64,000 nt of DNA, taken from a virus. Its lineage: Duplodnaviria; Caudoviricetes. How positions within the stretch are numbered: position 1 is the first letter of the stretch; each line of letters opens with the position of its first letter. This document shows, piece by piece, positions 2,293-63,245 of the stretch. The stretch lies in IMG/VR virus record IMGVR_UViG_3300028048_000042; one strand, given 5' to 3'. The notes below the pieces were generated by a model, which searched no databases, was not told the DNA's origin, and saw nothing but the letters and a program-made list of their open reading frames with translations. A program made the position numbers and the translations under genes.

Positions 2293-2487
2293 CCCCCTAT
2301 GTGTAATTGATACAAATATTCACATCATACAAAACCACTTCATTTGAAGTGTTCATATAGATATTCCTAAATTATCAGAATATTTAGGAATTTAAAAAGC
2401 AGCACATTAAATGTGCTGCTTTTTCTTGAAAAATGTTTACTTTTGTGCTATAATAATACTATATTTTTGAGGAAAAGATGTGATAAT

Positions 2488-2805
2488 ATGAGAGTAAGTA
2501 AACATGCAACAAAACGCATTCATGAACGAATCAATATTCCTAAGTCTTCTGTGGATAGAATGGCAAAGAAAGCGATTGAAAAAGGTATTACTCACCAAGA
2601 AGCTACAGGGCATTTATGTAAGTACATGGATAAGCTATTCCTATCTCATAAAACAGCTTCTAATATCCGAGTATATAACCATAAATCATTTCTGTTTTCA
2701 AGTAATATGACATTGATTACAGTTCTTGAGTTGCCAAATAATTTGAAAAAGATTGCAGATAAGTTGAATGAAAGGAAAAAACGCAATGAGGTACAAGGTA
2801 ATTAA
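2488..2805 (+). CDS. Small basic protein, possible RelE/DUF4258-like fold
   Basis: N-terminal SKHATKRIHER and C-terminal LITV pattern; own sigmaA-like promoter. Confidence 0.4.
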   Translation: MRVSKHATKRIHERINIPKSSVDRMAKKAIEKGITHQEATGHLCKYMDKLFLSHKTASNIRVYNHKSFLFSSNMTLITVLELPNNLKKIADKLNERKKRNEVQGN

Positions 2806-3208
2806 AAATGGCAAACGTATTGTTCCTGAAAAATTGGATAACGATATGATTCTTCTGAAACATACCCATAACAATGTGGTGTATGCTAGACGTAGTGAAT
2901 GGGTAGCTGCAAAGATTAACAAGACGGTTAATCGTCAGGTAATGCTTCAGAATGCACAGAGGTTCAGCACAAAGAAAATTCCTAAATTCACAAAGAAGGA
3001 AAAGGAAATTCTTATCAAGAATACAATCAAATGCTTTATTAAATTTGCTGAAGCATTTGAGAACAAGAATAAGATTATTTCTTCTGCCATGTTTGGCGAA
3101 ATTGTAAAAGACATTAAATCTCAGAACAATTATGGTTTGCAGATTTATGGTCATATGACAGAGGAACAGTACAAAGGACTTCTTCAGGAGATTAGCTTGT
3201 TGGTATGA
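2786..3208 (+). CDS. Hypothetical basic protein
   Basis: ORF overlapping neighbours in an operon-like arrangement. Confidence 0.65.
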   Translation: MRYKVIKNGKRIVPEKLDNDMILLKHTHNNVVYARRSEWVAAKINKTVNRQVMLQNAQRFSTKKIPKFTKKEKEILIKNTIKCFIKFAEAFENKNKIISSAMFGEIVKDIKSQNNYGLQIYGHMTEEQYKGLLQEISLLV

Positions 3209-3609
3209 CGGATAAAGAGAAACGATTTATGAGCGTTGCCAAAAGCGTTTCTAAGACTTCTAACCATAAACGTATTAAAATTGGTGCTGTTGTTGCTAAT
3301 AGAAAACAAATTATTTCTGTAGGGGCGAATGAGCAAAAAACTCACCCCTTACAGAAACAATACAACGCTTATGTTCCTTATGGACATGACGATAGCTTAA
3401 AACACTGCAAACATGCTGAAATATCATGTATTATTAATGCCAAACATGATTTACATGATTGTACTATGTATATTTACCGTGAAGACAAAAATGGAAATTT
3501 AAGCATGTGCAGACCATGCAATGCTTGTTATAATATGATTAGAGATGCAGGTATTACGAATATAGTCTATACAATACCTAATGGTTATGCGAGGGAAAAG
3601 ATAACATGA
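3205..3609 (+). CDS. Zinc-dependent cytidine/deoxycytidylate deaminase family protein
   Basis: IGAVV, HAE and PCxxC (CRPCNAC) motifs. Confidence 0.88.
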   Translation: MTDKEKRFMSVAKSVSKTSNHKRIKIGAVVANRKQIISVGANEQKTHPLQKQYNAYVPYGHDDSLKHCKHAEISCIINAKHDLHDCTMYIYREDKNGNLSMCRPCNACYNMIRDAGITNIVYTIPNGYAREKIT

Positions 3610-4406
3610 AACGACTGATACAAATTGCAAGTAATGAGTTGGATGGGATGGAAGTCGCTGATTATTTCAATTCTTTGTTTAAGGATGTAAAAAAAATTCT
3701 TGAACAAGGCTTGAATTTGTCAGAAAACGATTTTGATAACAATTTAAATAAATATACTAAATTTAACAATTGTAGTTTGGAAGATTTCTTCAAATTAATT
3801 GATGGTAGTCCTCTTATGACTGAAATTGTTAATGAATTCAATTGCCCTTATGACGTTATTACACGATTTGTATTGAATGATGCTATTTGCGAAAATGGTT
3901 GTAGACAATGGTTGAAGGATTTTATGCGTAAAATCCATAATGACCCCCATTTGACAGAACAATATAAAGGATTCGGTAATTCTGTAGAAGTGATTTCGAG
4001 TGCAAAGGAATTGCTTGATATTAAAGATAAAATTGGGGATGTAACAAAACTAAAGAATTTCATTGATTTTAATAATCGTGACAAAGGTTGGCTTATTATT
4101 TATCCTAATGTTTTTCTTGAAACTAAAAATGGCGAATCTCATACAGATTGCTTGCATCGTTGGTGCAAAGAAAACAATATTGATTTTTCTTCTGATAAAA
4201 CCAAAGAACGTTTATCAAAAGACGAATTGAAAAATATTGATATAAATAAATGTTCTATGGGACATATTGTTGATAATATGGCATTTATTGAAGATATAGG
4301 CATGGGAATTACCATTCAAGAAAGTCTTAAAGTGCTTGAAAAACATAACTTTAAGAAAGTCTATGAATATATTGAAAAAGAAAAACTTGTACGGAGATTA
4401 AAATAA
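3606..4406 (+). CDS. Hypothetical protein
   Basis: 266-aa ORF with ATGA overlap. Confidence 0.7.
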   Translation: MKRLIQIASNELDGMEVADYFNSLFKDVKKILEQGLNLSENDFDNNLNKYTKFNNCSLEDFFKLIDGSPLMTEIVNEFNCPYDVITRFVLNDAICENGCRQWLKDFMRKIHNDPHLTEQYKGFGNSVEVISSAKELLDIKDKIGDVTKLKNFIDFNNRDKGWLIIYPNVFLETKNGESHTDCLHRWCKENNIDFSSDKTKERLSKDELKNIDINKCSMGHIVDNMAFIEDIGMGITIQESLKVLEKHNFKKVYEYIEKEKLVRRLK

Positions 4407-4588
4407 TGAATAATGAAAAGAAAATTACAGTAACAATTTCAAATAGCGTAAGCAAATTTAAGTTTAAATTTCGCAGCAACCAATTGATATTGTCACCTTT
4501 TTTGTTTGTAGAATTGACAAAACCACAAAAAAAATTGTATGCAGAAAATTTGGTGCAAAAATTAGTAAAACGAATAATTGATATTTAA
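4406..4588 (+). CDS. Hypothetical protein
   Basis: 60-aa ORF, TAATG coupling, followed by a hairpin. Confidence 0.5.
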   Translation: MNNEKKITVTISNSVSKFKFKFRSNQLILSPFLFVELTKPQKKLYAENLVQKLVKRIIDI

Positions 4589-4667
4589 AAAAAAGATACC
4601 CCCCTCCCTGAAAATCAGGTGAGTTATTGGGGTATCTTTTTTGTATCAAATAAAGAGTCTGTAAAAT

Positions 4668-4925
4668 TTAAGCCAATTTGTGCTTCTTCAGGACACGCAT
4701 TACAATGTGGCTGTTATTTAAGTATGCTCTTGAATCTGATGGTGTTAAACCAACAAATATTTTTTCAGGGCATCCTTTGTACTGTAGAGCCATATGTTTT
4801 CTTGTGCAATCTATTTGGAATCCTATTTTGTTCATTTTTCGTTCAAAACGAGAGAATGAATGTATTCCTTTGTACATCTTAAAGCATTCAGCAATTTCGG
4901 ACTGTAAGTTGGATATTTTGCTCAT
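4668..4925 (-). CDS. HicA-like (dsRBD-fold) small protein
   Basis: GFxx..TRKH...TPSDSRAYLN pattern typical of phage HicA-like proteins; AAAGGAG RBS and own divergent promoter. Confidence 0.55.
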   Translation of the reverse strand: MSKISNLQSEIAECFKMYKGIHSFSRFERKMNKIGFQIDCTRKHMALQYKGCPEKIFVGLTPSDSRAYLNNSHIVMRVLKKHKLA

Positions 4926-5088
4926 TTTTAAATCTCCTTTACAATTCAGCGTTTTTTACTTACAAGCTTATTATAACACGTTTGGTTAAGAAAGTCAAAC
5001 AAAATTATACAAAAAAAATATTGACAAAACTATATTCCTGTGCTACCATAAAAATAACAAATTAATTCAAAAGAAGGAGAAAGTTAAA

Positions 5089-6000
5089 ATGAATGAAATT
5101 TTGTTAAGAACTGAACAAGAAATTGATTTAGATAATAAAACTCAGCATGTTTACGAAAATATAATTAAGGCAATTGAGTTGAAAGGTGATTGGGTAAAAC
5201 TCAATTGGAATGCGGTAAACCTGTCACTTAAAGAACAATTTTGGATTAGACAAAAATTGCAGAAGCATGACAATATCATTGTTCGACTTGGAGAATACGA
5301 TAAGAACAAGTTTTCTATTCCACCATTCTCTGTTCCTTTACTATATAAGTATGTGACGGAAGAAGAAAAAAAATCTAAAAGATATGAAGCATTCTGTTAT
5401 CGAAATTTATTGGGTGAATCAAAAGAATATATCACTCATAAGTTGGACACCTCCAAAATTAAACCATTTTCTCATGTTGCAAGTATTCTTGCTGTATGCG
5501 AAAAACTTCTTACTAAACCGAATTGGGCTAGTCCTGTGGCGTTTAATAAATTCGGTTTTGAATTAGGTTTATATGAATCAGAAACTAAGCAGGTTTTTGA
5601 AGATTTAAAAAATGCAGGCGTAATTACATACAAAATCGAAAAGGTGAAAAATGCACGGCGTGGAGGAAAAACAGGCGCACGAGTAATTTATAGTTTCAAT
5701 GATTCTTCTGATGTAGATAAAGAATCTACAAACCTTTCTTCTTGTCAAAACGAAGAAACTGAAAACACATTTACAGAGACAAAGGATATGACACAAACAA
5801 AGACTGACGAGGTAAATGTCCCAACAACCTTTAAGGAACTTTTGCAGAAACAGCAAGCAGAATTAATGAGTTATTTTGAAGGAAAAGAACGTTATCTGAA
5901 AAAGAAAGAAATGGAATTGAAAAAGAAAGAAGCTGAACTGATAGAAAAAGAAGCAAAATTGGGTGCAATTTCTAAAATTATAAAAGAAGTTGTAGAATGA
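5089..6000 (+). CDS. Hypothetical protein, possible winged-helix plus C-terminal coiled coil
   Basis: FEDLKNAGVITY wHTH-like segment; promoter TTGACA 5021, RBS AAGGAG, terminator after stop. Confidence 0.6.
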   Translation: MNEILLRTEQEIDLDNKTQHVYENIIKAIELKGDWVKLNWNAVNLSLKEQFWIRQKLQKHDNIIVRLGEYDKNKFSIPPFSVPLLYKYVTEEEKKSKRYEAFCYRNLLGESKEYITHKLDTSKIKPFSHVASILAVCEKLLTKPNWASPVAFNKFGFELGLYESETKQVFEDLKNAGVITYKIEKVKNARRGGKTGARVIYSFNDSSDVDKESTNLSSCQNEETENTFTETKDMTQTKTDEVNVPTTFKELLQKQQAELMSYFEGKERYLKKKEMELKKKEAELIEKEAKLGAISKIIKEVVE

Positions 6001-6185
6001 ATACCTACCTCCCTACAAAACGTTTATGATTTTGTAGGGAGGTATTTTGCTGTAATTAAAGTGGGTGAAAAACACCCACCCCCCATACCCCCATTCATGA
6101 CCCCCCTATAGACCCCATACCTACTTTTGGAGTGGAGAGAAATGAGTGTTTTTCAAGAGTGCATATAAAGAGTTTATATATTGTG

Positions 6186-6290
6186 AATTGTCAGAAAATT
6201 TAGGAATTTTATCATATGAATTTTCTGACAATTAATTTTCTGAAAATTTAGGAATTTATTTAAAAGAATTTTCAGAAAATTTAGGAATTT
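6186..6290. promoter_or_regulatory. Cluster of four CodY-like boxes upstream of the RNA ligase promoter
   Basis: AATTGTCAGAAAATT 6186-6200, AATTTTCTGACAATT 6219-6233, and perfect consensus AATTTTCTGAAAATT 6234-6248 and AATTTTCAGAAAATT 6267-6281; three are followed by TAGGAATTT. Confidence 0.75.
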
Positions 6291-8433: not shown

Positions 8434-8517
8434 ATCCACGTACATTTTTTAAATTCCTAAATTTTCAGATTATTTAGGAATTTAAAAAACACAAACTATA
8501 AAAAATCAAAAAAAGTA

Positions 8518-10559: not shown

Positions 10560-10835
10560 ATGGTAGGAATAACTGAAGTTATATCAGAGTCAAGGTTTTT
10601 AGCAAATCAAGAGGAATACATGATAGTATATTATGACAGGGAAAAAGATAAAGTGTTCTATAATATCTATCCATTATCTCAATCATACAAACAATACAAC
10701 TACATTGCACAAACCGTAAATTTAAAAACTATATACTTGCTTACTTTATTTTCTCCTTGTTTGAAAACTGAATCTGAGTTACAAAACTTCATAAACGATG
10801 CTATCAAAAATTTTTTGGTGGTAAAAAATTCCTAA
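10560..10835 (+). CDS. Hypothetical protein
   Basis: GGTGGTG RBS-like site. Confidence 0.55.
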   Translation: MVGITEVISESRFLANQEEYMIVYYDREKDKVFYNIYPLSQSYKQYNYIAQTVNLKTIYLLTLFSPCLKTESELQNFINDAIKNFLVVKNS

Positions 10836-10987
10836 ATTTTCAAACTATTTAGGAATTTAACAAAAAAAAGAGGTGTGTCTTGAAAATGCGACATACCTCT
10901 TTTTTGTACTTGTAGAAAAAAGTATTGACATATATAATAATATGCTTTACAATTAATATATAAGTTATTCGATAGGAGGTAGCAAAA

Positions 10988-11170: not shown

Positions 11171-11287
11171 AATGATTTCAATGAAGGGGGATTTTGTCTC
11201 CCTTTTTGTTTTAAATCCTTTTTACAAATTCTTAAATCTTCTGACAATTTAAATCAATATTTTTTTTGTAAAAAAATAAAAAAAGTA

Positions 11288-11877: not shown

Positions 11878-12171
11878 CAAAAAGGGAGAAGGAAAAACCT
11901 TCTCCCTTTTTTATTGTCTTTTTGCTTAGTAGGTAACAAATTCCTAAATTTTCAAACTATTTAGGAATTTACTGAACATATCAGCGGTGAATTGTCAGAC
12001 AATTCATGATACTTTTTGTATGGTTTTTTAGGTATTTGTTTTGCACTTTGCTATGTTTTATACGCAACAACAAGAAAACCCTGCTTACAGGCTGAATATG
12101 AGCGTTATATGAAGGGATATTATTTCTTTATATGTGTGAAAATTTTTATATAGAAAAATATAAAAAAGGTA

Positions 12172-13036: not shown

Positions 13037-13190
13037 AAACAAAGGGAAGGGAAAACCTTCCCTTTTATACTTTATCTAAAATTGTCAGAAAATTTGCAGC
13101 ATTTTTAATATTTAGGAATTTATTCAAAAATATTTTTAATATTCGTATTGACATAGCATGTAATTTATAGTAATATAATTAAAGGGAGGT

Positions 13191-14300: not shown

Positions 14301-14446
14301 TGGCAGGGATTTTCCCTGCTTTTTTTTTGCATTCTATTAAATTCCTAAATAGTCAGAAAATTTAGGAATTTAAGCAAGTATAAAATTGATTTTTTGAACT
14401 ATAATGTAATTGTAGGAATGAAAAAAGAATATGTGAGGTGTAGAAT

Positions 14447-16216: not shown

Positions 16217-16347
16217 TGGGAAGAAAATCTCCCCATTATTTTTTTCTTACGATAAAAATTCCTAAACTTTCAGATAATTTAGGAATATAATAAATAGATG
16301 AAAGCGAATAATATATATATTTGAATATTGTAAGGAGTGATAGCTTT

Positions 16348-17133: not shown

Positions 17134-17309
17134 TTGGAACACAAAAGCGGTAATAGAAAGGTAGCTATTTTGCTGCCTTTTTTAAATTCCTAAATGTTCA
17201 GACAATTCGTTATGAAAAATAGTCAAAAAAAGTATTGACATGCGCATAAAAAAGAGTATAATATAAGTATAAATTGATTTTGATGGTTATCCAATAGGAG
17301 GTAATAAAA

Positions 17310-19158: not shown

Positions 19159-19242
19159 TTCTTATATCCTGCCATAATTGGCAGGATATAATTTTGTGTA
19201 AAATAATCAGACTGTTTAGGAATTTTAAAAGGGGATTTTACA

Positions 19243-19641
19243 ATGTTTGTTATCGTTATGATAATCTTGATTATATATTTGTTCTGCTATTTGTTGTTCA
19301 ATTGTGATGACAAAATATATATGATATATGACGAAAAAGAAAAGGTTATTAAATATGTTGAAGAAAAAGATTTGACAAACGTACAAAAGTATTATCTTTC
19401 TCACAATCCATACGAATACACATACAGTTCCACAAACAATACAGAAACCTTGTATATGGTTGTTTGTGAGCAATCAAATTTGTGTTATTGGTGCGATTGG
19501 GAGAATTTAACACGAGAACAAAAACAGTTTTTAAATCAAAGAGAACAATATGTAAACACCTTAAACAAAAACAAAACATGGATTTATGGAAAAATGAAAT
19601 GCGGATTGGTTGATTGGATTGAAGAACCTACAAATTCATAA
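19243..19641 (+). CDS. Hypothetical protein with N-terminal membrane anchor
   Basis: Hydrophobic first 20 residues. Confidence 0.6.
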   Translation: MFVIVMIILIIYLFCYLLFNCDDKIYMIYDEKEKVIKYVEEKDLTNVQKYYLSHNPYEYTYSSTNNTETLYMVVCEQSNLCYWCDWENLTREQKQFLNQREQYVNTLNKNKTWIYGKMKCGLVDWIEEPTNS

Positions 19642-19794
19642 ATGTTCAGATTATTTAGGAATTTAGTAAAAAAGCCTGTAATATTACAGGCTTTTATGTT
19701 TGGTTATTTAAAAAAAATGTTGACAAAATAAGAAAATGGGTATATAATTAATTTGTAAAACAAATAAAGCCAATACAACAGGAGGTTGGTAAAA

Positions 19795-20555: not shown

Positions 20556-20759
20556 GCAAGGGGATTTTCCCTTGCCTTTTTTTGAATTTGCGTTAAATAA
20601 ATTCCTAAATAGTGCGAAAATTTAGGAATTTAATAAAAAAGAGGTTTATCACGTTTTCAAGATAACCCTCTTTTTTGTAATTGTAAAAAAAAGTATTGAT
20701 AAATTAACAAAAATGTTGTATAATTGAAATATGAAAACTCTAATAGGAGGTTTGATAAT

Positions 20760-22113: not shown

Positions 22114-22268
22114 CATATTAGCAAAAACCTGCTATTCATGAATAGCAGGTTTTTTGTTTTTTATGTATATTTTCAAAAAAATATTTTAAAAAAGTATTGA
22201 CATACATACATAAAGATGATATACTAATTACAGTTAAAAGATGAATTACTTATTAGGAGGTAATTAAA

Positions 22269-22727: not shown

Positions 22728-22936
22728 CAATGACATGGGGGGGGGATTTCCCTCCATGTTTTTTTATTTACATTAAACAAATTCCTAAATTTTCAGATTA
22801 TTTAGGAATTTAATGGTTTTTGAAAATATGTAAAAAGAAATCATAACATACTAAAAAATACTTGCAATAAGTCGCGAACTGTGTTATAATAAAGACAGTT
22901 AAGAAATAAGTAGTTCATAATAGGAGGAACAAGGTT

Positions 22937-24569: not shown

Positions 24570-24797
24570 TTGCATAGGTGGATTTTTCTCCACCTATTTT
24601 TCTTTTTGTTCATATTGGTAAAATTCCTAAATAGTTTGAAAATTTATGAATTTGTTTGTAGGATAAATTGTATTGACATATATTATGATTTTTGATATAA
24701 TACTTATGGATTTGGGGAATTTGTAAACTAAAAATTTGAACTGTAAATTATTTTAGTTTACAACTGAAAATTTTAATTAACAGGAGGATTGTGATTT

Positions 24798-25373: not shown

Positions 25374-25961
25374 ATGCAATTATTAGGAATGAGAGAAATG
25401 GAAACAAAAGTAAGAATGCTGACCTATGCTTTACGCAAAGAATTAGAAAAAGCAGGTTTGGACATGTACCCACTTGTTGATGTAACAGTTACTAGATGTT
25501 GTACTAGACGTTTTGGATTATGCCACTACAATACGAAATATGATTTTAAAAAAGGTAAAAGCGTAATTGACAGTTGCAATATTGTAATTTCAGACCTTTG
25601 TTTTCATAATACAGAGAATTGTTTGAGAGATACAATTTTGCACGAATTGGTACATACTGTAAAAGGTTGTCAAAATCACAGAACACCATTCCACAATACC
25701 GCAAGAAAAGTCATGAGATTGTTTCCTGATGCTCACATTGATACACATTGTAGCAAAGAGGAAAGTCAAAAATTAAGAGAATTTAACAAACAGGTTGGCA
25801 GGGTAAGAGTTGCAAAATACAAAGTGACTTGTAACAAGTGCGGTTGTAGTTGGGAATATAAACGCAAAACGAAACTTGTTACCGCATTGTTAGAAGGAAG
25901 AAAACATGGTTATCGTCACACAAAATGCGGTTGTCATGACTTTTCTTTGGAAATTTTGTAA
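25374..25961 (+). CDS. SprT-like zinc metalloprotease with C-terminal Zn ribbon
   Basis: TILHELVH (HExxH), HxxxF, YKVTCNKCG...KCG. Confidence 0.8.
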   Translation: MQLLGMREMETKVRMLTYALRKELEKAGLDMYPLVDVTVTRCCTRRFGLCHYNTKYDFKKGKSVIDSCNIVISDLCFHNTENCLRDTILHELVHTVKGCQNHRTPFHNTARKVMRLFPDAHIDTHCSKEESQKLREFNKQVGRVRVAKYKVTCNKCGCSWEYKRKTKLVTALLEGRKHGYRHTKCGCHDFSLEIL

Positions 25962-26194
25962 CCACAAGTTAGTACAAGACAGGGAATATTCCCTGTCTTT
26001 TTGTTATCCACAAAATTATCAACATATCCACAGTATATAAATTCCTAAATAATCAGAAAATTTAGGAATTTATCAAATTTGAAAAGCAAAAATTTTTCAT
26101 AACATATTTGAAAAAGTGCTTGACTTTTGGCTAACAACTGATATAATAAATATTGTAAAGAGAAACCACAAGAATAAAATTGGAGGAATACAAA

Positions 26195-26311
26195 ATGAAC
26201 ATTGAAACCATACAGACTATCAACACTTACGAGATTCCGAAGAATTTGAATGAAAACGAAATGCTTGATTATCTGAAAAATTTGATTAAAGAAAAACAGA
26301 TTGTCGCATAA
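26195..26311 (+). CDS. Small protein (38 aa)
   Basis: Own promoter, GGAGG RBS; MNIETIQTINTYEIPKN... Confidence 0.6.
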   Translation: MNIETIQTINTYEIPKNLNENEMLDYLKNLIKEKQIVA

Positions 26312-26363
26312 GAAAATTTAAAAAAGTGTTGACAAACAATATAAACTCTGATATAATATAATC

Positions 26364-26716
26364 AAGATAAAGGAAAGGAAAGTAAAAGAAGAGGGGAATT
26401 AAAGTTCAAACAAACAGAAGGGAGGAACTTACAATGACCGCCACAGGACAAGCGGTAACGCACCATATTCGTGACAGTGATAACTAACTGCTAAATCTGT
26501 CATAGAATATAGAGTTTAGCAGTTTTGCCGATTCGTAAATTACCTTTAAAAATTTGCGAATATAAAATTTGATTGGGCGTGGTTCGCTCATGGTATGCTA
26601 GGATAGCGGAAAGAACGAGGTTGAATGATGATTAGAGATAAGCCGTAATTGAATTTAATTTATTGTTAAGAATTTTAGGCTATTAAAAACAGGCAAGATT
26701 AACCTTGCCTGTTTTA
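26364..26716 (+). ncRNA. Putative structured small RNA / peptide-encoding RNA
   Basis: Promoter-to-terminator unit without a normal ORF; stems 26486-26495/26515-26524 and 26531-26540/26552-26561; terminator 26685-26716. Confidence 0.45.
26434..26487 (+). CDS. 17-aa peptide MTATGQAVTHHIRDSDN
   Basis: GGAGG RBS 8 nt before ATG, promoter TTGACA 26329/TATAAT 26352. Confidence 0.4.
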   Translation: MTATGQAVTHHIRDSDN

Positions 26717-26815
26717 TTTATAAATTTATTTAACAAAAGTATTGACATACATATTTAAATATGATATTATAATGGTGTAAGGAAAAATGAATTATCTAAT
26801 AGGAGGTAGTTGACA

Positions 26816-27472
26816 ATGGATTATAACGTTTTAGAAGTAGTGTTAGAGGATTGGGAGGAAACCCATAACGGTTTTGACTTAAAAAGGGAAAAATCGTTTG
26901 TATCGGTTTTACCAAAATATGTTGATAGCATAATTTTGGAAATGTGGAATATCAAAGATGATATGGACACAGAAACTTTACTTCTCGATATTGCATGGGA
27001 AGTTGCTTGCAGGATTACAGATGAAGGTTTCGTAAACAACAAAAAGTTGTTGCATTTTATCATTAACAATTACTTGGACAATTTGATTAAAGACGAAGGT
27101 TATGAAGATGATGAAACTTTCAATGATACAATTAAACGTGCCATTGATTATGCTATGAGAGAATTGCTTTTTGGCTACGGTGTAATTAATTATTACACAA
27201 AACAACACCTTATTCGTTATTACAAGGAAAATATTGACGCTGATTTGATTAACTTCCCTCATGACGAAGTAGATGAAATCATGGAAAATGAAACAAATGG
27301 AGGTCATTGGGAGAACATCAAAGCAGTTTGTGATGAAATCATCAAGGATTGTTTTGAACCTCTTAAACGCAAGAGTATAACGTTTGAAATTGAATTACCT
27401 GCTAGTGCTGATGTAAATGACATTGTTGGTTATATTCGTGATAAGTTTGATGGCAACGTAACAATTAAATAA
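26816..27472 (+). CDS. Acidic hypothetical protein
   Basis: Promoter and AGGAGG RBS. Confidence 0.75.
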   Translation: MDYNVLEVVLEDWEETHNGFDLKREKSFVSVLPKYVDSIILEMWNIKDDMDTETLLLDIAWEVACRITDEGFVNNKKLLHFIINNYLDNLIKDEGYEDDETFNDTIKRAIDYAMRELLFGYGVINYYTKQHLIRYYKENIDADLINFPHDEVDEIMENETNGGHWENIKAVCDEIIKDCFEPLKRKSITFEIELPASADVNDIVGYIRDKFDGNVTIK

Positions 27473-27979: not shown

Positions 27980-28131
27980 AAAAAGCATGGTAGAATTTTT
28001 CTACCATGCTTTTTTACTTCCATAATTGTCTGAACATTTAGGAATTTGTAGATAATATAAGGTTTAAAAATGAGCAAAAATTTTTTTCAAAATCTGTTAT
28101 ACATTGGCTGAACAAGAACTATAATTATAGT

Positions 28132-28900
28132 GTAAAAGAAAACACAATGGAGCAGGGTTAAAAATTTTAATCTTGTTGTGTTGAGTGGTTTTTTACTTGT
28201 TGAATGACTCCCTATAGTGCAAGTATGTAGTATAGAGAGCCATTGAACAATTTCTATCTTGAAATAAGATATACAAATTGCATATAGAAAAATCACACTA
28301 GGAATGAGCATAAAAACCTAGTATAAAAAAACCGTGTCCCAAAAATTGTAGGTTTACGAATAATTATCGTTCGTGTTAAAGACAATGTGAAAAACTTGAA
28401 CCTTCACTGCTATGTTATAAGCCTATTGCCTGTGAGTATTGTTAAAAGTCAATGCCACGAATAGACAAAACTTTAATTGATTTGTGATATTCAAAACGTT
28501 ATTAAATAACACATGAATACACATATTCCACTTGTCACGAATTGACATTAGGAATGAAAATTATCACAAATGGTTGGAGCAGGTCGGCAGTAGATTAAGA
28601 GGATAATATCCGCAGGTTATAACTCCGTCAACTATTAAGATACCCCATTCGTAGTGCCTATGGCAGGGATGACGGAAGGAAATGCCTATCCTGTTAAGTG
28701 ATTCAGTGAAGTATTATATGGTTAAGCTACAATCGGACATATTTTCCTTCCGTTGGTAGAAACCTCATTGTGAATATATAATAGCAATATTGTATACTGA
28801 CAATAAGGCTTGTACCCTCATTCTCTTACAAAGTAAGGGGAAAAGTATTTCCTATTGTGAAATACCACTTTCACTTGAAATACTTTGCAAACTATGCTGA
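28132..28900 (+). ncRNA. Putative large structured non-coding RNA (~770 nt; ends approximate)
   Basis: Only long ORF-free stretch inside the early region; promoter TTATAC 28097/TATAAT 28120; many stems with G-U pairs on the + strand, e.g. 28152-28161/28167-28176, 28471-28489/28562-28579, 28671-28682/28743-28754, 28842-28851/28877-28886. Confidence 0.7.
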
Positions 28901-28915
28901 AATGCTAACATTTAT

Positions 28916-28960
28916 ATATTTTGGAATATAATATTTTAGAATATAATATTTTGAAATATA
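28916..28960 (+). repeat. Three tandem 15-bp repeats ATATTTTRRAATATA
   Basis: ATATTTTGGAATATA, ATATTTTAGAATATA, ATATTTTGAAATATA. Confidence 0.85.
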
Positions 28961-28978
28961 TTAGAGGAATGATTAAAT

Positions 28979-29152: not shown

Positions 29153-29297
29153 TCTTGCTTCTTTTATATTCCTAAATAATCTGAAAATTTAGGAATATGT
29201 TTTTTATTTCTTTTAAAAAAAGTATTGACATGATACAATATGTGTGATATACTTAACTCATAAAGCTAAAGATGTTTTCCAAAAGGAGGAAGTAAAA

Positions 29298-30430: not shown

Positions 30431-30627
30431 CAATATGTGAGAGTGGAAATTCCCACTCTTTTTTTTATGTTTAAAAATTCCTAAACTTTCAGATAATTTA
30501 GGAATTTATTTGACACAGACGTTGTAAAAAAAAGTCATGACATATTTGAAAAAATACTTGCAAAACATTTCTTCCTATGATATAATAAAGACAGTTAAAA
30601 GAGAGTTCACAAAAGGAGGAACTGATT

Positions 30628-31493: not shown

Positions 31494-31700
31494 CAGGAAG
31501 CAGGGAGAAATCCCTGTTTTTTCTTGGTTTAAATAAATTAAATTCCTAAATTGTCTGAAAGTTTAGGAATTTAATGATTTTTGAAATATGTGAAAAAAAA
31601 TCATAACATACTTTAAAAAAATACTTGCAAAATACTCATATACGTGCTATACTATATACAGAAATGAGATAAGAGGTTCTACTAAAGGAGGAACAAAATT

Positions 31701-33811: not shown

Positions 33812-34016
33812 TAAATATGAGCAGGTAGGAAAATCCTACCTGCTTTTTTTGTACGCATTTCAGTTAAATTCCTAAATAGTCTGAATTTTTAGGAATTTAG
33901 CAAAGTAGTGAAACAAAAAAATGTTATATGTTAAAAAAAGATATTGACATACTTACATATATATGGTAATATAATGGTGTAAGAAGAAATAAGCACTCAA
34001 TAGGAGGTCGTTTGAA

Positions 34017-34463: not shown

Positions 34464-34680
34464 AAACAAGGGGAATTTTCCCCTTGTTTTTTTTGTTTAC
34501 ATATTGAACAAATTCCTAAATAGTTTGAAAATTTAGGTGCTTAACGAAAAAGAGGTCTGCCACGAATTGCTGACAAACTTCTTTTTCGTAAATGTAAAAA
34601 TTTTTCTTGACATACATACATATATGTGGTAATATAATGGTGTAAGGGAAATTAAGGTTCTTGATTAGGAGGAACATAAA

Positions 34681-35483: not shown

Positions 35484-35660
35484 AAAAAAGGGAGAAAACT
35501 CCCTTTTTTTTCTTGTCGAAATTCTTAAATTGTCTGAACATTTATGAATTTGTATATTAAAAAAATGGTGGTTTTGTTTGCGTAAGAATAAAAATTTTTC
35601 TTGACATACATTGTATATTATGATACTATAGTATTGTAAGTTTTTAAGGAGGTGTGTGAA

Positions 35661-36838: not shown

Positions 36839-37069
36839 GAATTGGGGGCATAATCCCCAATTCTTTTTTTGTTGTTTATACGCACTATCCCCAAATTCCT
36901 AAATAATCTGAAAATTTAGGAATTTGTCATAAGATAAAACTCTCCGCTTTTTGACATTTTTTCACAACGTGTAATGGCAAAATTTTTAAAAAAAAAAGAT
37001 ATTGACATACATACCAATGTATGATATTATAATAGTGTAAGCAAAAAACGTTTTCGGAGGTATAAAATC

Positions 37070-38415: not shown

Positions 38416-38685
38416 AAAAAAAGAGAAGGTTTATTCCTTCTCTTTTTTTTTACCGTTCTATTTATATCTTTAGGAGGTAAATTCCTAAACTGTCTGAAAA
38501 TTTAGGAATTTGTACAAGGGGGGAGTTACCTTGCGACTTAACCATGAAAAAGTATCTTGCACCATTAAAAAAATACTTACAATAACTTAAAATATAATAA
38601 CAAATGAAAATAAATTTTGTTGACTTGTATATGAAATTGTGGTAACATGATAATGTAAATGAAATTGAGTTAAGGAGAAATAATT

Positions 38686-39192: not shown

Positions 39193-39374
39193 GAACAGGG
39201 ATTTTCCTTGTTCTTTTTTTAATTGTTAGAATAAATTCCTAAAGATTCTGACTATTTAGAATTTCATATAGAAAGATAACAAAAAAATCTCATAACATAC
39301 TTGACAAAACTCCTAAAAGTGATATAATGATTATAGTAAATGAAATTGAGTTATCTAATAGGAGGTAATTTATT

Positions 39375-40910: not shown

Positions 40911-41162
40911 AAAAAAGCAGGGAAACCTGCTTTTTTTTGTAATTATTCTTTGGCAAATTCCTAAACTTTCAGACTATTTAGGAATTTGCCAAGGAAATCT
41001 AAAATTGCTTATTTCCTCCAATAAGTATCGTAAAATGATATTTATTGGAGGAAATAGGCATATTTTTTAAAAAAGTTTCATATCATACTTGACATATATA
41101 CATATATATGGTAATATAATATTGTAAATGAAATTAAGCTATCCAACAGGAGGTAATCAAAA

Positions 41163-42492: not shown

Positions 42493-42696
42493 TGAAAAGA
42501 CAGGGAAATTTCCCTGTCTTTTTGTTTACTATCATATTTATTAAATTCCTAAACAATCTGAAAATTTGGGAATTTAATAAATTGCGAGATTGGTAGGAAT
42601 ATATTTTTCAAAAAAAAAGTATTGACATGCATGGTTATTTATGATACAATGATATTGTAAATAAGAAATGGTTACTTTGAAAGGAAAGTGATTATA

Positions 42697-43567: not shown

Positions 43568-43813
43568 GAGGAAACCTTTTCCTCTTATTTTATCGAGGAT
43601 TGTATTGACAATGCTATACAAGTATATTGTTTGTTTACAATAAAGTAAATTCCTAAATTTTCAAACTATTTAGGAATTTATTGAAAGAGGTTTATCACGA
43701 ATTGTTGACAAACCTTTTTTAACAAAATGTAAAAATTTTTCTTGACATACATACATGTATATGATAATATAATAGTGCAAATGAAATTTAGTTATCTAAT
43801 AGGAGGTAGTGAA

Positions 43814-45114: not shown

Positions 45115-45316
45115 AGCAAAACAGGGAGAAATCCCTGTTTTTTTTGCTTGTAATGTTTTAACAAATTCCTAAATTTTCAAACTATTTAGGAATTTGTTAA
45201 ATATGGTGGTAAAAACTTTTATAAAAAATCAAAAATAAGTATTGACATACAAGTAGATATTTGATATAATGAATTACAGATAAGGAAGAACGTATCAATA
45301 AAAGGAGAGATATTTT

Positions 45317-45706: not shown

Positions 45707-45954
45707 ATTTCAAAATAACAAAAAATAACAAAATGATGGGAAGCAGGGAGAAATCTCTGTTTTCTTTTTGTTCTACATCTAACAAATTCCTAAATAATTT
45801 GAAAATTTAGGAATTTGTTAAAAGGGAAGTTATTACCAAACTTGGTAAAGAATTTTCTTTTGTTAATGTAAAAGTTTTTCTTGACATACACACAAAATTA
45901 TGATATTATAATAGTGTAAAAGTGGTTCTGAATAAAAATTTGGAGGGAATAATA

Positions 45955-47393: not shown

Positions 47394-47688
47394 ATCAAAA
47401 AAGGTTATATTTTGAAATGAAGAAAACAGGGATTTCTCCCTGTTTTTCTGTTTCTGCATTTATTAAATTCCTAAATTTTCAAACTATTTAGGAATTTATC
47501 GAAAAAGAGGTCTGTCACGAATAATTGATAAGGTTCTTTTTTGTAAAATGCAAAACTTTTTATTTTATGAAGTTTTTTTATAAAATACAAAAAAAACGTA
47601 TTGACATATACTGCAAAATAGTGTAATATATTAAGTGTCGAAGGGATAATCCCTTAGTTAATCAGTTATCCAATAGGAGGTAATAATT

Positions 47689-48339: not shown

Positions 48340-48535
48340 AAAAAAGGAAGGTTTATCCTTCCTTTTTTTTATGCTATTTTTTATATTTAAATTCCTAAAT
48401 AGTTTGAAAATTTTAGGAATTTAAAATGAAGTTTTTGCAAAATAACTTTAAAAATAGTATTGACAAACACACTAAAATATAGTACAATATTTATAAATCA
48501 AGAAAACATAGTTACTTATAAGGAGGTAACAAAAA

Positions 48536-51708: not shown

Positions 51709-51885
51709 AAGGAAGGGGAAATTTCCCCTTCCTTTTTTTTATTAAGAGTTTTTTTGCAGTTTGAAGTAACCCAATTTCTATTAAGATAAATTCCTAAATT
51801 TTCAAACTATTTAGGAATTTATCTTACTTGACAAGTTTACATTTTTGGGGTATAATTAATGTAAATACAAAGGGAGGTTTTTGCT

Positions 51886-53356: not shown

Positions 53357-53551
53357 GGATAAAAGCAGGGAAAAATAACCCCTGCTTTTTGTTTATTTAC
53401 AATAAGGTAAATTCCTAAATAATCAGACAATTTAGGAATTTATATAAAGAATACAATAAAAAGTAACGACATACAAATAAAAAACTTGAATTCTTTTGCG
53501 AAAGATGTTACAATATAGGTAAAGAAAAATACATAACAGGAGGTAATTAAA

Positions 53552-54886: not shown

Positions 54887-55104
54887 AAAGTTATCAATCA
54901 AGAACTAACTGAGTTTAACACAAGCAGGGAAAACAATCCCTGCTTATTGTTTATTCACAAGAAAGTAAATTCCTAAACTTTCAGACTATTTAGGAATTTG
55001 TATAAAAAACATTCTCAAAAAAAAGTATTGACATATATATACCGTTCTGTTATAATAGAATCATAGAGAAAAGATAACGAATAGATGTTATGGAGGTATT
55101 TATC

Positions 55105-55730: not shown

Positions 55731-56055
55731 TGCTTGTAGACCTTAATAGTGAAAATCTATTAAGGTTTTTTATTTTTGGTATTGACATACATATCAATCC
55801 TTGGTATAATATACTTGTAAATGATATTACATTAACAAATGGGGAAGGTGAAAAACACCTTCCTTTTTTATGTTCAAAAAGATTACCAATCCTTCGGATT
55901 ATCTATTCTTCTAATTCCTAAATTTTCAGACTATTTAGGAATTAGTCACAAGCCACTCATTCAAAATTTTTCATAACATATATCAAAAATACTTGACTTT
56001 TCTCTTATTTGTGTTATAATGTACTTGAAAATAATCTCAACAGGGGGTAATTGAA

Positions 56056-58678: not shown

Positions 58679-58826
58679 ATACTTTACATTAAATAAATTC
58701 CTAAATTTTCAAACTATTTAGGAATTTATAGAATCATTTAAGATGTTCTTGGAGTTAAAAAATATTGACTGAGTATATTGTTTATTGTATAATAAGATTA
58801 GAATAATAAAAAAGAGGGAAATTCTA

Positions 58827-59024: not shown

Positions 59025-59113
59025 ATTCTATTTCGTAAAAAAAAGTATTGACAAAGCACATTATTTTTGATACAATATAACCATAAAGGAACACCTAATA
59101 GGAGGTAATAAAA

Positions 59114-60190: not shown

Positions 60191-60427
60191 TTAACATTGA
60201 TAAATGGGTAGGTGAGAAATCACCTGCCTTTTTATTTGCTCAAAACTGCTATATAAATTCCTAAATTTTCAAACTATTTAGGAATTTATATAATTATTTT
60301 TTTAAAAATTTTTTTAAAAAAAAATGTATAAACATGGTTGACATATACTCAATTTTTTGATACAATAAAGTCATGAGGTTGAGACATACCTTATAGAAAA
60401 TCAACTACCATGTAGGAGGTAATTAAA

Positions 60428-60781
60428 ATGATTTTTTGGGTAAAGGATTTGGAAAACCACGATACGATTTATTATGGCGAAGATAAACGAGAAATGAGAA
60501 AGGCAATTCGGTCTTATGCGGAGCAGGTCGAAGGTATGGAGTTCTTAGATTACTCTATTGCAAAAATCGAACCAATTGGTTTAAATGCAAAGGAAATAAA
60601 AAACGTCCTCAGTTATACAGTAAGGGATTGGGATAAGCCGAAAGGACAGAAAACCTTGTTTTATAAAGGTACTTCCTTGAAGGAAGCAAAGGAAATTGCA
60701 AAGAAACACAATCTTGACCGCATCAACAGATGGACAATTATGGAATGTGTTTGTAATCACACCATGACATATACATTCTAA
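60428..60781 (+). CDS. Hypothetical protein with internal duplication
   Basis: WVKDLE...IYYGEDKRE / TVRDWD...FYKGTSLKE. Confidence 0.72.
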   Translation: MIFWVKDLENHDTIYYGEDKREMRKAIRSYAEQVEGMEFLDYSIAKIEPIGLNAKEIKNVLSYTVRDWDKPKGQKTLFYKGTSLKEAKEIAKKHNLDRINRWTIMECVCNHTMTYTF

Positions 60782-60973
60782 ACAAAGAGGGGAGAAATCC
60801 CCTCTTTTATTTTCTTCATATTTATATAAATTCCTAAATTTTCAAACTATTTAGGAATTTACCCAATTATTATCGCAAAATTTTTTTCAATAAATATAAA
60901 AAAACACTTGTATTTACATGCGTGAAATGTTATAATTAGATTATAGAAAAACACCTAACAGGAGGGAATTGAA

Positions 60974-62044: not shown

Positions 62045-62267
62045 ATAAAATTAAGACAGGGAGTAAAATCCCTGTCTGTTTTTTTTGTTATTTAATAATT
62101 CAAATTCCTAAATTTTCTGATAATTTATGAATTTGATTGGACACCTTTTTTGAAAAATCTTTTCAAAAAAAATTATTGACATATATATAATCATCTGCTA
62201 TAATATAATCAAAGGTTGAGAGAAAAATAACTCAACGAAAAAGTTTCTACAACAGGAGGAAATCACC

Positions 62268-62561
62268 ATGAAAATGAACATCAACAATGCAGGAGACTTC
62301 GTGAAGGACGCTTTTCTGAATGGCTATCTGAAAGCCTTACAGGATTTGGCTGATTGGGAGATTAACCATCTCGACCAAGATGATTCCAATGCAGTAAAAG
62401 AGTGGGACAATAACTACGCTGTTAGGGTTGTTATGAGAGGTAAAATCCTCGGTATCAGTGAGGAAACGTCCAACGAGAATTATGCCAAAGTCCTTGAAGC
62501 CAAGGTCAATGCAATGGCTACTCCGTGGAAAGAATACAACGTTGATGTCGTGGTCGCTTAA
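62268..62561 (+). CDS. Hypothetical protein
   Basis: Promoter, AGGAGG RBS, terminator. Confidence 0.75.
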   Translation: MKMNINNAGDFVKDAFLNGYLKALQDLADWEINHLDQDDSNAVKEWDNNYAVRVVMRGKILGISEETSNENYAKVLEAKVNAMATPWKEYNVDVVVA

Positions 62562-62802
62562 CTGACAAGTCATATAATCTGAGGGGGAGAAATCCCCTTC
62601 TTTTGCGTTCGTTTTTTTTTGCAGCATATCTGTATAAATTCCTAAATAGTCTGAACATTTAGGAATTTAATTAAGCACCTTTAAAAAAAACCTTTTATTT
62701 TTTTAAAAAATGTATTGACATACATACAAAATTTTGGTACAATATATTTGTAAGGTTGAGAGATACCTAAGAAATAAAATTACCCAATAGGAGGAATTTA
62801 AC

Positions 62803-63147
62803 ATGTTAGAATTTGTAAAGGTAGAAGAAAAGGAAAGTCGTTTTTTTGAAGGTGCAATTACAGAGGTTTTTGAAAGCCATAATAAGCTGAATGGTAGAAC
62901 GTACCTGTTTGAAATAACCACTGATGATAATATCGCTAGTGTATCGGTGTTGCGTTTGCGCAAAGGGAGTAAGTTCCTGTATGACCAAACTTATATCCTC
63001 GACAAAATATCCTTCAATTATGATGATAACGCCGATAAAAAGCGTATGAGAGAAATATTGCTTCGGAATTGCATCAAAAAATACGCTACATATAAGAGCG
63101 ACCTGTATCAGTTCTTCTCTTTGACATTGGCTAATATCGCTTATTAA
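62803..63147 (+). CDS. Hypothetical protein
   Basis: Promoter, RBS, terminator; last gene of the array. Confidence 0.75.
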   Translation: MLEFVKVEEKESRFFEGAITEVFESHNKLNGRTYLFEITTDDNIASVSVLRLRKGSKFLYDQTYILDKISFNYDDNADKKRMREILLRNCIKKYATYKSDLYQFFSLTLANIAY

Positions 63148-63187
63148 AAAATGGCAGGGATAATCCCTGCTTTTTTATTTCACGTTA

Positions 63188-63245
63188 AATTGTCAGAACA
63201 TTTAGGAATTTATTTGCTCTGAATTGTCTGAATATTTAGGAATAT
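63188..63245. promoter_or_regulatory. Two 24-bp (two-box) copies of the CodY-like element at the end of the early region
   Basis: AATTGTCAGAACATTTAGGAATTT 63188-63211 and AATTGTCTGAATATTTAGGAATAT 63222-63245. Confidence 0.7.

Follow-up and report, generated by a model that had tools for sequence, protein, structure and literature searches.

Introduction

In iteron plasmids, Rep monomers bind direct iterons and Rep dimers bind inverted repeats, a single operator lying at the rep promoter. Dispersed operators of phages have precedents in SPBRE/MrpR and in the stoperators. SPBRE, a short conserved motif of 15 bp that recurs between genes and in promoters of a large temperate Bacillota prophage with many small genes, gives ~10 ChAP-seq peaks and had been proposed as an operator on in silico grounds years before its binder MrpR/YopR, a protein of recombinase fold that could not be recognised by sequence, was found (PMC10516654). 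The stoperators of L5 and other cluster A mycobacteriophages, sites of one repressor dispersed in dozens of copies over short intergenic spaces, bring about genome-wide silencing; they are 13 bp long, asymmetric, monomer-bound and orientation-dependent, and are found in DNA that is transcribed, where they stop elongation (PMC9283540, PMC6550527). In the hyperplastic early regions of T4-type phages, cassettes of small ORFans are accompanied by PeSL repeats, each a strong host-type promoter with a stem-loop terminator, and where close relatives differ by indels or replacements, the differences end in these repeats (PMC2839356, PMC4122927). Finally, CodY, to which the dominant regulatory role in low-G+C Firmicutes has been ascribed, recognises DNA mainly by its shape and accepts sequences that vary greatly; its operators normally contain overlapping boxes (PMC10415144, PMC5314169, PMC9318921), and three dimers bind a triple overlapping site whose boxes carry 5, 2 and 3 mismatches (PMC10415144).

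Here we describe ~50 copies of a 33-bp palindrome that are interspersed with the small early genes of a ~318-kb uncultured jumbo phage of the gut, analysed in a stretch of 64 kb (the window). Like SPBRE, the element is a conserved motif repeated between many small genes, but it lies upstream of promoters and not necessarily within them, and its putative binder is a winged helix and not a recombinase fold. The dozens of copies in short intergenic spaces recall the stoperators, from which they differ in being palindromic, orientation-free and mostly located behind terminators. The PeSL-like arrangement of cassettes, promoters and terminators is shared as well; here, however, a third, AT-rich palindrome between terminator and promoter is the most conserved part, and it has a conserved centre and half-site derivatives. 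As in overlapping CodY operators, the middle 15 bp of the element agree with the consensus, also at the T and A that CodY reads base-specifically, and AT-rich flank segments lie in the matching 9-bp overlapping register, whereas the flank boxes hold invariant non-consensus bases, conservation peaks outside the central box and the copies are near-identical instead of highly variable. The half-site forms tandem direct repeats beside a winged-helix gene and inverted repeats elsewhere, as in iteron plasmids, but ~40 inverted sites extend over 61 kb and the candidate protein is not a recognisable member of a Rep family.

Results

Full copies, defined by arm anchoring (at most one mismatch per arm, 11-bp spacer), number 35 and are accompanied by 5 near-full and ~12 partial copies (Table 1). 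These ~52 copies, with a mean spacing of ~1.2 kb in the window, agree with the ~50, one per ~1.2 kb, counted in a first-pass annotation, and none is expected by chance: the consensus 33-mer has 27 matches with at most three mismatches, against 0 in 100 shuffles. Both arms are perfect in 26/35 full copies, and none of the 35 is a perfect palindrome. The commonest 33-mer is present in nine copies and no more, and identical 33-mers sit in unrelated flanks. The same annotation had placed the palindrome almost exclusively between genes and its partial copies in unit sizes, and both statements hold. All copies are intergenic, apart from an overlap of at most 9 bp with a stop codon in four of them, and the nine single-arm matches within genes all lack the centre motif and represent background. 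Partial copies consist of core plus right arm (6186, 6234, 6267, 19202, 63188, 63222), left arm plus core (11226, 17184) or the core alone (6219, 11990, 13080). Such modular units favour protein binding over a pure hairpin.

Table 1. Copies of the 33-bp element and neighbouring features in the window (F and R, core orientation).
Position	Strand	Feature	Evidence or remark
2361–2393	.	Full copy	Arm mismatches 1+0; precedes terminator 2397–2421
5089–6000	+	Candidate binder, 303 aa, predicted winged helix and coiled coil	AF2; no Pfam/PHROG match
6061–6180	.	Conserved non-coding block (C-tracts, hairpin), left of half-site cluster	~95 bp 100% identical to L074
6185–6209	.	Half copy (core + right arm), first of tandem direct cluster	
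6218–6233	.	Core-only unit	
6233–6257	.	Half copy; core a perfect CodY-box 15-mer	CodY-box scan
6266–6290	.	Half copy; core a perfect CodY-box 15-mer	CodY-box scan
8451–8483	.	Full copy, F; palindrome extended 6 bp	Arm anchoring
10826–10858	.	Full copy, F, commonest 33-mer	Stop-codon overlap; second terminator hairpin follows
11226–11258	.	Decayed copy (left arm + core)	Arm anchoring
11938–11970	.	Full copy, F, commonest 33-mer	Arm anchoring
11989–12005	.	Core-only palindrome	
13080–13121	.	Core-only unit 13080–13094 and separate right arm 13111–13121	
14339–14371	.	Full copy, R	Arm anchoring
16256–16288	.	Full copy, F	Arm mismatches 0+1
17184–17207	.	Partial copy (left arm + core)	
19202–19225	.	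Partial copy (core + right arm)	
19632–19664	.	Full copy, F	Overlaps stop codon; then terminator
20599–20631	.	Full copy, R	Terminator on both sides
22779–22811	.	Full copy, F	Arm anchoring
24621–24653	.	Full copy, R	Arm mismatches 0+1
26039–26071	.	Full copy, R	Arm anchoring
28015–28047	.	Near-full copy, variant left arm	
29166–29198	.	Full copy, R	Compensated change 2/32; exactly inverted core in orthologue L016:301
30475–30507	.	Full copy, F	Arm anchoring
31540–31572	.	Full copy, R	Arm anchoring
33866–33898	.	Full copy, R	Arm anchoring
34510–34542	.	Near-full copy, decayed right arm	Inverted core in orthologue L020:672
35519–35551	.	Full copy, R	Paired positions 7 and 27 changed
36893–36925	.	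Full copy, R	Arm anchoring
38479–38511	.	Full copy, R	Arm anchoring
39233–39265	.	Near-full copy	Right arm with 1-bp deletion
40955–40987	.	Full copy, F	Palindrome extended 5 bp
42543–42575	.	Full copy, R	Palindrome extended 7 bp
43647–43679	.	Full copy, F, commonest 33-mer	Second hairpin follows
45163–45195	.	Full copy, F, commonest 33-mer	Extended 6 bp
45784–45816	.	Full copy, R	Extended 4 bp
47465–47497	.	Full copy, F, commonest 33-mer	Inverted core in L013:23
48389–48422	.	Near-full copy, R, 1-bp insertion	Overlaps stop codon
49414–49446	.	Near-full copy, variant left arm	Arms intact in relatives L013, L025
50351–50383	.	Full copy, R	Arm anchoring
51788–51820	.	Full copy, F, commonest 33-mer	Extended 6 bp
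53409–53441	.	Full copy, core orientation ambiguous	Arm anchoring
54967–54999	.	Full copy, F	Arm anchoring
55912–55944	.	Full copy, F	Compensated change 1/33; overlaps stop codon
57674–57706	.	Full copy, core orientation ambiguous	Arm anchoring
58695–58727	.	Full copy, F, commonest 33-mer	Arm anchoring
60255–60287	.	Full copy, F, commonest 33-mer	Extended 5 bp
60828–60860	.	Full copy, F, commonest 33-mer	Extra cassette here in relative L014
62102–62134	.	Full copy, F	Arm mismatches 0+1
62636–62668	.	Full copy, R	Arm anchoring
63187–63211	.	Half copy (core + right arm), right array edge	
63221–63245	.	Half copy, tandem with 63187 copy (34-bp period)	

Conservation within the 33-mer resides in the arms (positions 1–11 and 23–33) and in the centre T15, C16, W17, G18 and A19 (TCWGA), three blocks about one helical turn apart. 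The 11-bp arms are near-invariant, the dinucleotides at 13–14 and 20–21 beside TCWGA vary freely, and conservation falls sharply at positions 0 and 34. Each arm holds ~18.6 bits against 11 bits for the core, and the total of ~48 bits is far above what specifying ~50 sites needs. T15 and A19 are invariant in 35/35 copies, as are A10 and T24. In the commonest core (nine identical copies), the G of TCWGA is replaced by A. The core is oriented F in 18 copies and R in 14. Changes in the arms are mostly single and uncompensated (2361, 16256, 19632, 24621, 62102). Outer-arm changes are compensated in two copies (29166, 55912), and the palindrome is extended by at least 4 bp, in a copy-specific manner, in 7/35 copies (0.7% by chance), observations that speak against protein binding alone. 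In single-stranded DNA, the element can form a hairpin with a 12-bp stem (about −7.8 kcal/mol, −15 in extended copies).

The elements are located in the spacer between the terminator of an early gene and the next host-type promoter, which is normally untranscribed, at 2–59 bp (median ~20) from the terminator and 7–103 bp upstream of the −35 box. Five copies are bracketed by two terminators, and at least five lie within 3′ UTRs (2361, 10826, 19632, 48389 and 55912, the last four being those that overlap a stop codon). About half of the terminator-promoter junctions lack an element. All genes of the array are on the + strand and are served by Bacillota-type promoters, ribosome-binding sites and terminators. 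No helical phasing of the elements with the −35 box was detected (Rayleigh p 0.14–0.27). At these distances and without phasing the elements cannot occlude the promoter, and any repression would need looping or spreading.

In 14 orthologous pairs with intact arms, 3/308 arm positions differ (99% identity), while identity is 92% in orthologous cores, ~84% in the flanks and 75–93% over the aligned DNA around them, both coding and non-coding. This indicates purifying selection on the arm sequence and not only on its pairing. Among ~20 orthologous pairs, three show an exact inversion of the core (29166, 34510, 47465), and comparison of the window with the relative L074 shows 3/4 central W bases to be swapped. 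That both orientations are tolerated and flip between orthologues fits recognition of double-stranded DNA and disfavours a strand-specific role in RNA. Tandem direct half-sites, which are unable to form a hairpin, stand at both edges of the array (6185–6290 and 63187–63245) and are kept in L074. Gains, losses, replacements and reorderings of cassettes among relatives end at or near elements (L014, L006, L019, L022, L023), and the extra cassette of L014 is bounded by a duplicated terminator and element; some junctions fall in terminators and promoters too. An element with its hairpin module also occurs in L007 and L026, two contigs whose proteins show no similarity to those of the window. No element was found in 11 kb of the more distant relative L073, which shows that it is dispensable for early expression as such.

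Searches of the ~110 ORFs of the window with Pfam and PHROGs detected no DNA-binding gene, and no transposase, RAYT or recombinase family. The AF2 model of ORF 5089–6000 (pLDDT 77, pTM 0.61) shows a predicted winged-helix region (residues ~108–208, with three helices and two beta strands at 128–203 and a basic wing) and a 55-residue coiled coil (248–302). By structural alignment with VIA-align, it resembles the DNA-binding domain of PerR/Fur (Z 6.3, rmsd 2.0 over 82 residues) and RepA_N initiators (Z 5.1–5.4), all matches being below Z 8 and therefore indicative only of a generic winged helix; its language-model look-alikes are all HTH_36/DnaD_N. The ORF is situated 177 bp upstream of the cluster of tandem half-sites, to which it stays adjacent in L074, and a remote homologue is located between UvrD and SNF2 helicases. 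As the window covers 64 of ~318 kb, the rest of the genome may encode a better candidate.

Discussion

We tentatively favour the reading that the element is an operator or iteron-like site for a sequence-specific protein encoded by the phage, with the 33-mer as a dyad-symmetric recognition site in double-stranded DNA composed of two 11-bp arms and the TCWGA centre. The likeness of the core to a CodY box is left unexplained by a phage protein. It had led the first-pass annotation to regard each element as a three-dimer CodY site. For the central part the resemblance is confirmed: the core matches the box at 12–13/15 in all full copies, a score reached by 0.11% of window positions, the perfect matches reported at 6234 and 6267 are real, those at 6186, 6219 and 13080 have a single mismatch, and the invariant T15/A19 and A10/T24 correspond to the most conserved positions of the CodY box, the only ones that are read base-specifically. 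The expression signals of Bacillota type would also suit this regulator, and given the known triple site, a pattern of 5/2–3/5 mismatches is not absurd. The flanks fit less well. Their reported 10/15 agreement is correct but is attained by 1.3–1.5% of random positions, and the arms are near-invariant at non-consensus bases (TTAGG and CCTAA where CodY has TCWGA) and more conserved than the core although CodY reads mostly shape, so that something other than CodY must constrain them. Furthermore, the commonest core departs from TCWGA, 29 CodY matches with up to three mismatches are expected by chance per 64 kb, the elements lie upstream of promoters and not over them, and a phage winged-helix protein is encoded beside the best half-site cluster. 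Binding of host CodY, in which one dimer would occupy the core and further dimers perhaps bind the flanks cooperatively, is possible, but we consider it unlikely as the explanation of the element; it would tie the early region to branched-chain amino acid/GTP status, titrate CodY during phage DNA replication or, as the first-pass annotation also proposed, coat the DNA, and CodY on the core would be compatible with a phage factor bound to the arms.

Equally doubtful is a repeat without a dedicated binder that propagates itself or is maintained by recombination, similar to REP elements or as a third component of PeSL, whose main effect, through a hairpin or cruciform, would be to drive recombination and reshuffle the cassettes of a hyperplastic early region. 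The precedent of PeSL, the core inversions and W swaps, the extensions, compensated changes and hairpin stability, the unrelated flanks, the cassette changes at elements, the occurrence in contigs without shared proteins and the absence from L073 all agree with such a repeat. However, the arm sequence itself is kept beyond pairing, gene conversion over both arms would homogenise the core too, which is not the case, the palindromic TCWGA is conserved within the supposed loop, and hairpin-incapable half-sites are conserved at both array edges; in addition, there is neither a GTAG-type REP signature nor a target-site duplication, nor, among the ~110 ORFs of the window, a mobility gene of the families searched. 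A function in RNA, as back-up terminator on read-through, site for RNase III or other processing, or 3′ stabiliser, could be imagined from the possible 12-bp stem, the position just downstream of terminators and the copies in 3′ UTRs, but it is very improbable, as most copies lie beyond an intrinsic terminator, the stem has no U-tract behind it, the two core orientations give different loops and flip between orthologues, half-sites cannot fold and most changes in the arms lack compensation. The inverted arms and asymmetric spacer of elements at cassette boundaries also bring to mind lox/FRT-like or attC-like targets of a cassette-moving phage site-specific recombinase. This is scarcely credible with a spacer of 9–11 instead of 6–8 bp, no recombinase detected in the window, junctions also within terminators and promoters, and ~45 sites in both spacer orientations, which would scramble or invert an array whose genes are all still on one strand.

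Under the favoured phage-encoded binder, the best candidate would be the putative winged-helix and coiled-coil protein beside the tandem half-sites. Since the site is palindromic, hairpin-mediated template switching may take place at it and would account for core inversions and arm extension, and the element with its adjacent terminator and promoter could serve as a homology patch for cassette exchange. The element is specific to a lineage of ~318-kb jumbo phages with a Bacillota-type host of the ruminant and pig gut, in which a sequence-specific phage protein would bind the copies and act on the whole 61-kb early domain, perhaps shutting it off in a coordinated way or silencing it, by bridging of ~45 sites or spreading from them, or exerting an initiator-type control like that of iteron plasmids, with direct half-sites binding monomers and inverted sites dimers.

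Sequence context of the element array

The window has a G+C content of 31% and its genes lie essentially all on the + strand. Most of the ~115 ORFs are small and have no recognisable function; those that could be recognised encode an Rnl1-type RNA ligase, a C5 DNA methyltransferase, a dCMP deaminase, an HNH endonuclease and a SprT-like protein, and no tRNAs were found within the window. The longest contig carrying a window protein measures 318,451 bp, which makes this a jumbo phage. Near-identical DNA is present in bovine and pig gut runs, and metagenome contigs contain fragments 75-93% identical to the window. A nucleotide search with the window matched no GenBank phage.

Copies and anatomy of the palindromic element

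The 33-bp consensus of the element, two arms (positions 1-11 and 23-33) enclosing a core centred on TCWGA, matched the window 27 times with at most 3 mismatches, as against 0 matches in 100 shuffles. When a full copy is defined as both 11-bp arms, with at most one mismatch per arm, around an 11-bp spacer, the window contains 35 of them (26 with perfect arms), next to 5 near-full and about 12 partial copies. Nine single-arm matches fall within genes and, having no centre, count as background. The partial units described in the first-pass annotation were recovered in kind and place, as were its perfect CodY-type 15-mers at 6234 and 6267. The array is real and striking: many copies of one conserved intergenic motif stand in a single phage genome, as they likewise do in the SPBRE, stoperator and P1 C1 operator arrays.

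Across the 35 full copies the two arms are essentially invariant; conservation extends to T15, C16, W17, G18 and A19 but not to positions 13-14 and 20-21, which vary, and positions 0 and 34 fall to background information save for a Y/R preference. Each arm carries ~18.6 bits versus ~11 bits for the core, and the sum of ~48 bits is far above what 50 sites would need. In other systems such a surplus reflects several recognisers or shared descent. The centres of the three conserved blocks are spaced ~10.5 bp apart, so that the blocks share one helix face. A late-promoter or alternative-sigma reading was discarded on the finding that no conserved sequence follows position 34.

Features of the array and neighbouring non-coding DNA
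Feature	Coordinates	Remarks
Core + right arm, in tandem	6185-6290; 63187-63245	
Left arm + core	17184; 11226	
Core only	6219; 11990; 13080	
Second hairpin	10859-10905; 20632-20680; 34543-34590; 43680-43725; 47498-47545; L007:11047-11094; L026	directly 3' of element
Inverted-core pairs (window/relative)	29166/L016:301; 34510/L020:672; 47465/L013:23	core exact reverse complement, arms identical
Conserved non-coding block	6061-6180	just left of half-site cluster
DnaA-box-like 9-mers	25995-26038	between terminator and element 26039
ORF-free intervals	26072-26809 (~740 bp); 28048-28978 (~930 bp)	with promoters; after elements 26039 and 28015
Right-edge non-coding DNA	63250-64000	at least 750 bp
65-nt A/T-rich repeat	63440; 63704; 63848	three copies
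G-tract blocks	63515-63571	

The usual spacer runs from the stop codon through a G+C-rich intrinsic terminator, 2-59 bp (median ~20), the element and a further 7-103 bp to a promoter, which consists of an A-rich upstream region and near-consensus -35 and -10 boxes, often with an extended -10, and is followed by AGGAGG and the start codon. Among the 85 gaps of at least 40 bp, 39 hold an element and 25 the full combination of terminator, element and promoter; element-free gaps include 12 with terminator and promoter and 16 with a promoter only. Over the whole window, strong + strand promoters number 94 and terminators 67, and the first 20 kb alone has 32 terminators where 6.9 would be expected. 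In five copies the element stands ahead of a terminator or overlaps with a stop codon, and in five it is bracketed by two terminators. The distance from element to -35 box shows no helical phasing (Rayleigh p 0.14-0.27). Sites in known operator arrays overlap promoters or sit in the transcribed path, where they block RNA polymerase; here the -35 box comes 7-103 bp after the element, and most copies stand behind terminators. The layout is shared with PeSL cassettes, in which a composite of strong host-type early promoter and stem-loop terminator is likewise repeated between small ORFs.

Several other features were observed in these spacers. Directly after five elements comes a second terminator hairpin that looks bidirectional, with an A-tract, a GAGG-type stem and a T-tract, and this module of element plus hairpin also occurs on contigs without protein similarity to the window, among them L007, taken from a 129-kb contig. 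One of the two DnaA-box-like 9-mers is perfect (TTATCCACA), and element 8451 has a similar motif upstream. The two ORF-free intervals may encode non-coding RNAs; in the RNA runs, compared over 8-27 kb, summed contig depth peaks in the 25752-27000 bins. The minus-strand ORFs of the right-edge region, including 63449-64000, were rejected as genes because they are translated repeats.

Conservation, flipping and extension of the palindrome

Orthologous copies in related contigs were paired by a mapping anchored on long HSPs. Fourteen pairs have intact arms, and their 308 arm positions show only 3 differences (99% identity), while same-orientation cores are 92% identical and the surrounding aligned DNA 75-93%. 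Shared descent alone is excluded, since the arms exceed both cores and surroundings in identity. Gene conversion spanning both arms would have homogenised the core as well, which it has not, and this comparison of orthologues therefore argues that the arms are under selection for their sequence. No match to the full element pattern was found in IMG/VR. The 44 IMG/VR loci hit by a 17-mer half-site were all chance matches or unrelated tandem repeats, and two genome contigs (L001, L002) and six metagenome contigs (L003, L005, L008, L009, L011, L012) were set aside as chance matches since the centre motif is missing. In the literature, the arm motif turned up in primers only.

The asymmetric core occurs in both orientations, 18 copies against 14, and is inverted between window and relative in three orthologous pairs. 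Comparison of the 6.2-kb half-site cluster with that of the relative L074 shows the central W swapped in 3 of 4 sites although the region is 93% identical. In 7 of 35 copies the palindrome is extended by 4-7 copy-specific bp (0.7% expected), and in two copies the outermost positions have changed in a compensated way; inner arm changes, mostly at positions 7 and 27, are single and uncompensated. In single-stranded form the element gives a hairpin with a stem of 12 bp and a loop of 9 nt (~-7.8 kcal/mol). We read the inversions, extensions and compensated changes as by-products of template switching within the palindrome, and they show that arm pairing takes place in vivo at least now and then. 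By simple counts, the core has orientation R in 9 of 10 copies between 24.6 and 38.5 kb, and F in 13 of 18 between 40 and 62 kb.

Exchange of cassettes between relatives

Related contigs differ from the window in their gene cassettes. L014 has an extra cassette of ~750 bp after element 60828, flanked by a 79-bp duplicate of terminator and element; in L006 the gene flanked by terminator 22123-22154 and element 22779 is replaced; the cassette order is changed in L019, and L022 and L023 are without cassettes present in the window. The ends of these indels and replacements fall in repeats, as they do between close relatives carrying PeSL cassettes, in what are few cases on short contigs. In the more distant relative L073 (methyltransferase 68% identical) genes are tightly packed and 11 kb contain 0 elements. 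Judging by these gains and losses and by the element-free L073, the array has been elaborated, in one lineage, from a cassette region of the PeSL kind. Elements in L004, L015 and L026 adjoin genes absent from the window, and element-flanked cassettes with such genes occur in L006 and L019 as well; the pool of early cassettes in the population is therefore larger than that of any one genome.

A candidate DNA-binding protein

Profile searches of the ~110 window ORFs against Pfam and PHROGs revealed no DNA-binding or HTH families. The candidate binder, ORF 5089-6000 (303 aa), ends 177 bp before the half-site cluster, with 3-4 direct half-sites 177-290 bp after it. It gave nothing in a PDB sequence search or against Pfam, and its language-model look-alikes were uniformly HTH_36/DnaD_N (score 0.85), which we take as a lead only. 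An exhaustive HMMER search yielded 15 relatives, and AF2 run with their sequences (pLDDT 77, pTM 0.61) predicted that residues 128-203 form a winged helix and that the C-terminus is a coiled coil of 55 residues. VIA-align superposed residues 108-208 of the model on the DNA-binding domains of Fur/PerR, TFE, CAP and RepA_N (Z 5-6.3); a wide VIA search was filled by coiled-coil matches. The modelled fold is that of a generic winged helix, not specifically of CodY: CodY was the top Foldseek row (E 0.026, TM 0.2) but fell outside the best 50 of VIA-align. An Atlas search with ORF 3606-4406 gave no usable match.

A ~440-aa remote homologue of ORF 5089-6000 (P0125 on contig L075) is encoded between UvrD-type and SNF2-type helicase genes, a neighbourhood that suggests a role of the family in DNA metabolism. 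L074 keeps the gene, the half-sites and the non-coding block between them together. This block contains C-tracts and a small hairpin, and ~95 bp of it are 100% identical to L074, compared with only 82% for the protein of the neighbouring gene. Possible roles of the block are those of an origin, a non-coding RNA or a promoter recognised by a non-host polymerase, its minus-strand sequence being CTATAGGGGGG.

What binds the element

The first-pass annotation had interpreted each element as three overlapping operators of CodY. CodY recognises a 15-nt consensus box, and its overlapping boxes share 6 nt (PMC10415144, PMC5314169, PMC9318921); DNA shape accounts for most of its recognition, each half-site adding two base-specific contacts, and three dimers bind a triple site whose boxes carry 5, 2 and 3 mismatches (PMC10415144). 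The core does resemble such a box, scoring 12-13 of 15 in 32 of the 35 full copies (a score found at 0.11% of positions), and the critical T15 and A19, flanking CWG, are invariant. The sequence thus makes it plausible that CodY, if the host has it, binds at least the perfect boxes at 6.2 kb. The commonest core, however, lacks the G of TCWGA, and chance alone would yield 29 matches with at most 3 mismatches. The proposed overlap at 9-bp offset, as in the 24-nt overlapped motif, keeps the T and A of the shared half-sites, but the flank boxes reach only 10/15, as do 1.3-1.5% of random positions, and are centred on invariant non-consensus pentamers. Five mismatches in one box are nonetheless accepted for triple sites in the literature. 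Conservation also runs opposite to the pattern of CodY sites, in which contacted positions are kept and the rest varies: the arms are conserved far above the core, and a tolerant, shape-reading regulator does not account for 22 invariant arm positions. We consider it unlikely that host CodY binds the elements. Still less probable is a genuine host CodY array, in which ~50 core boxes with phage-specific arms would read nutrient status across the early domain or soak up CodY during replication; on the arms, CodY might then meet competition or cooperation from the winged-helix protein of the phage.

We favour, tentatively and with slightly less than even confidence, an operator or iteron-like site for a phage-encoded protein. 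This protein would recognise the element across the whole early domain, and hairpin-driven core flipping and cassette exchange would be side effects of the site. Iteron systems typically have direct half-sites near the initiator gene and inverted sites elsewhere, and by analogy the direct half-sites beside the winged-helix gene could be of this kind, but ORF 5089-6000 has no Pfam match and RepA_N structures align only at Z 5.1-5.4. A recombination-prone or REP-like palindrome without any binder would agree with the flipping, yet the ~110 ORFs of the window, which covers 64 of the ~318 kb of the genome, include no Y1 HUH (RAYT) transposase family and the element has no GTAG signature, and we judge this improbable as well. 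That the element functions as RNA seems very improbable; the RNA contigs listed (8-27 kb) lie inside gene bodies and none bridges a palindrome, but DNA contigs break there too (a k-mer repeat), so that these breaks are uninformative on its transcription. A recombinase target is the least credible reading of all: the spacer measures 9-11 bp rather than the 6-8 bp of lox/FRT-type sites, no recombinase family was found within the window, and the genes are all co-oriented despite the mixed spacer orientation.

Implications for jumbo phages

The array is a variant on dispersed phage operators and PeSL cassettes, both of known kinds. Should CodY bind after all, it would be the first phage array to read or titrate a global nutrient regulator. 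Jumbo phages carry long runs of unassigned early genes whose joint switch-off and turnover are poorly understood. Here, one highly conserved site stands at around half the boundaries between transcription units in a 61-kb early domain, with clear half-site derivatives at both edges. With the 33-mer as a probe and one testable candidate protein, it offers a concrete handle in the search for a domain-wide regulator of a jumbo phage, as well as a natural case of small phage palindromes that flip and extend and a marker of cassette exchange in gut phage populations.
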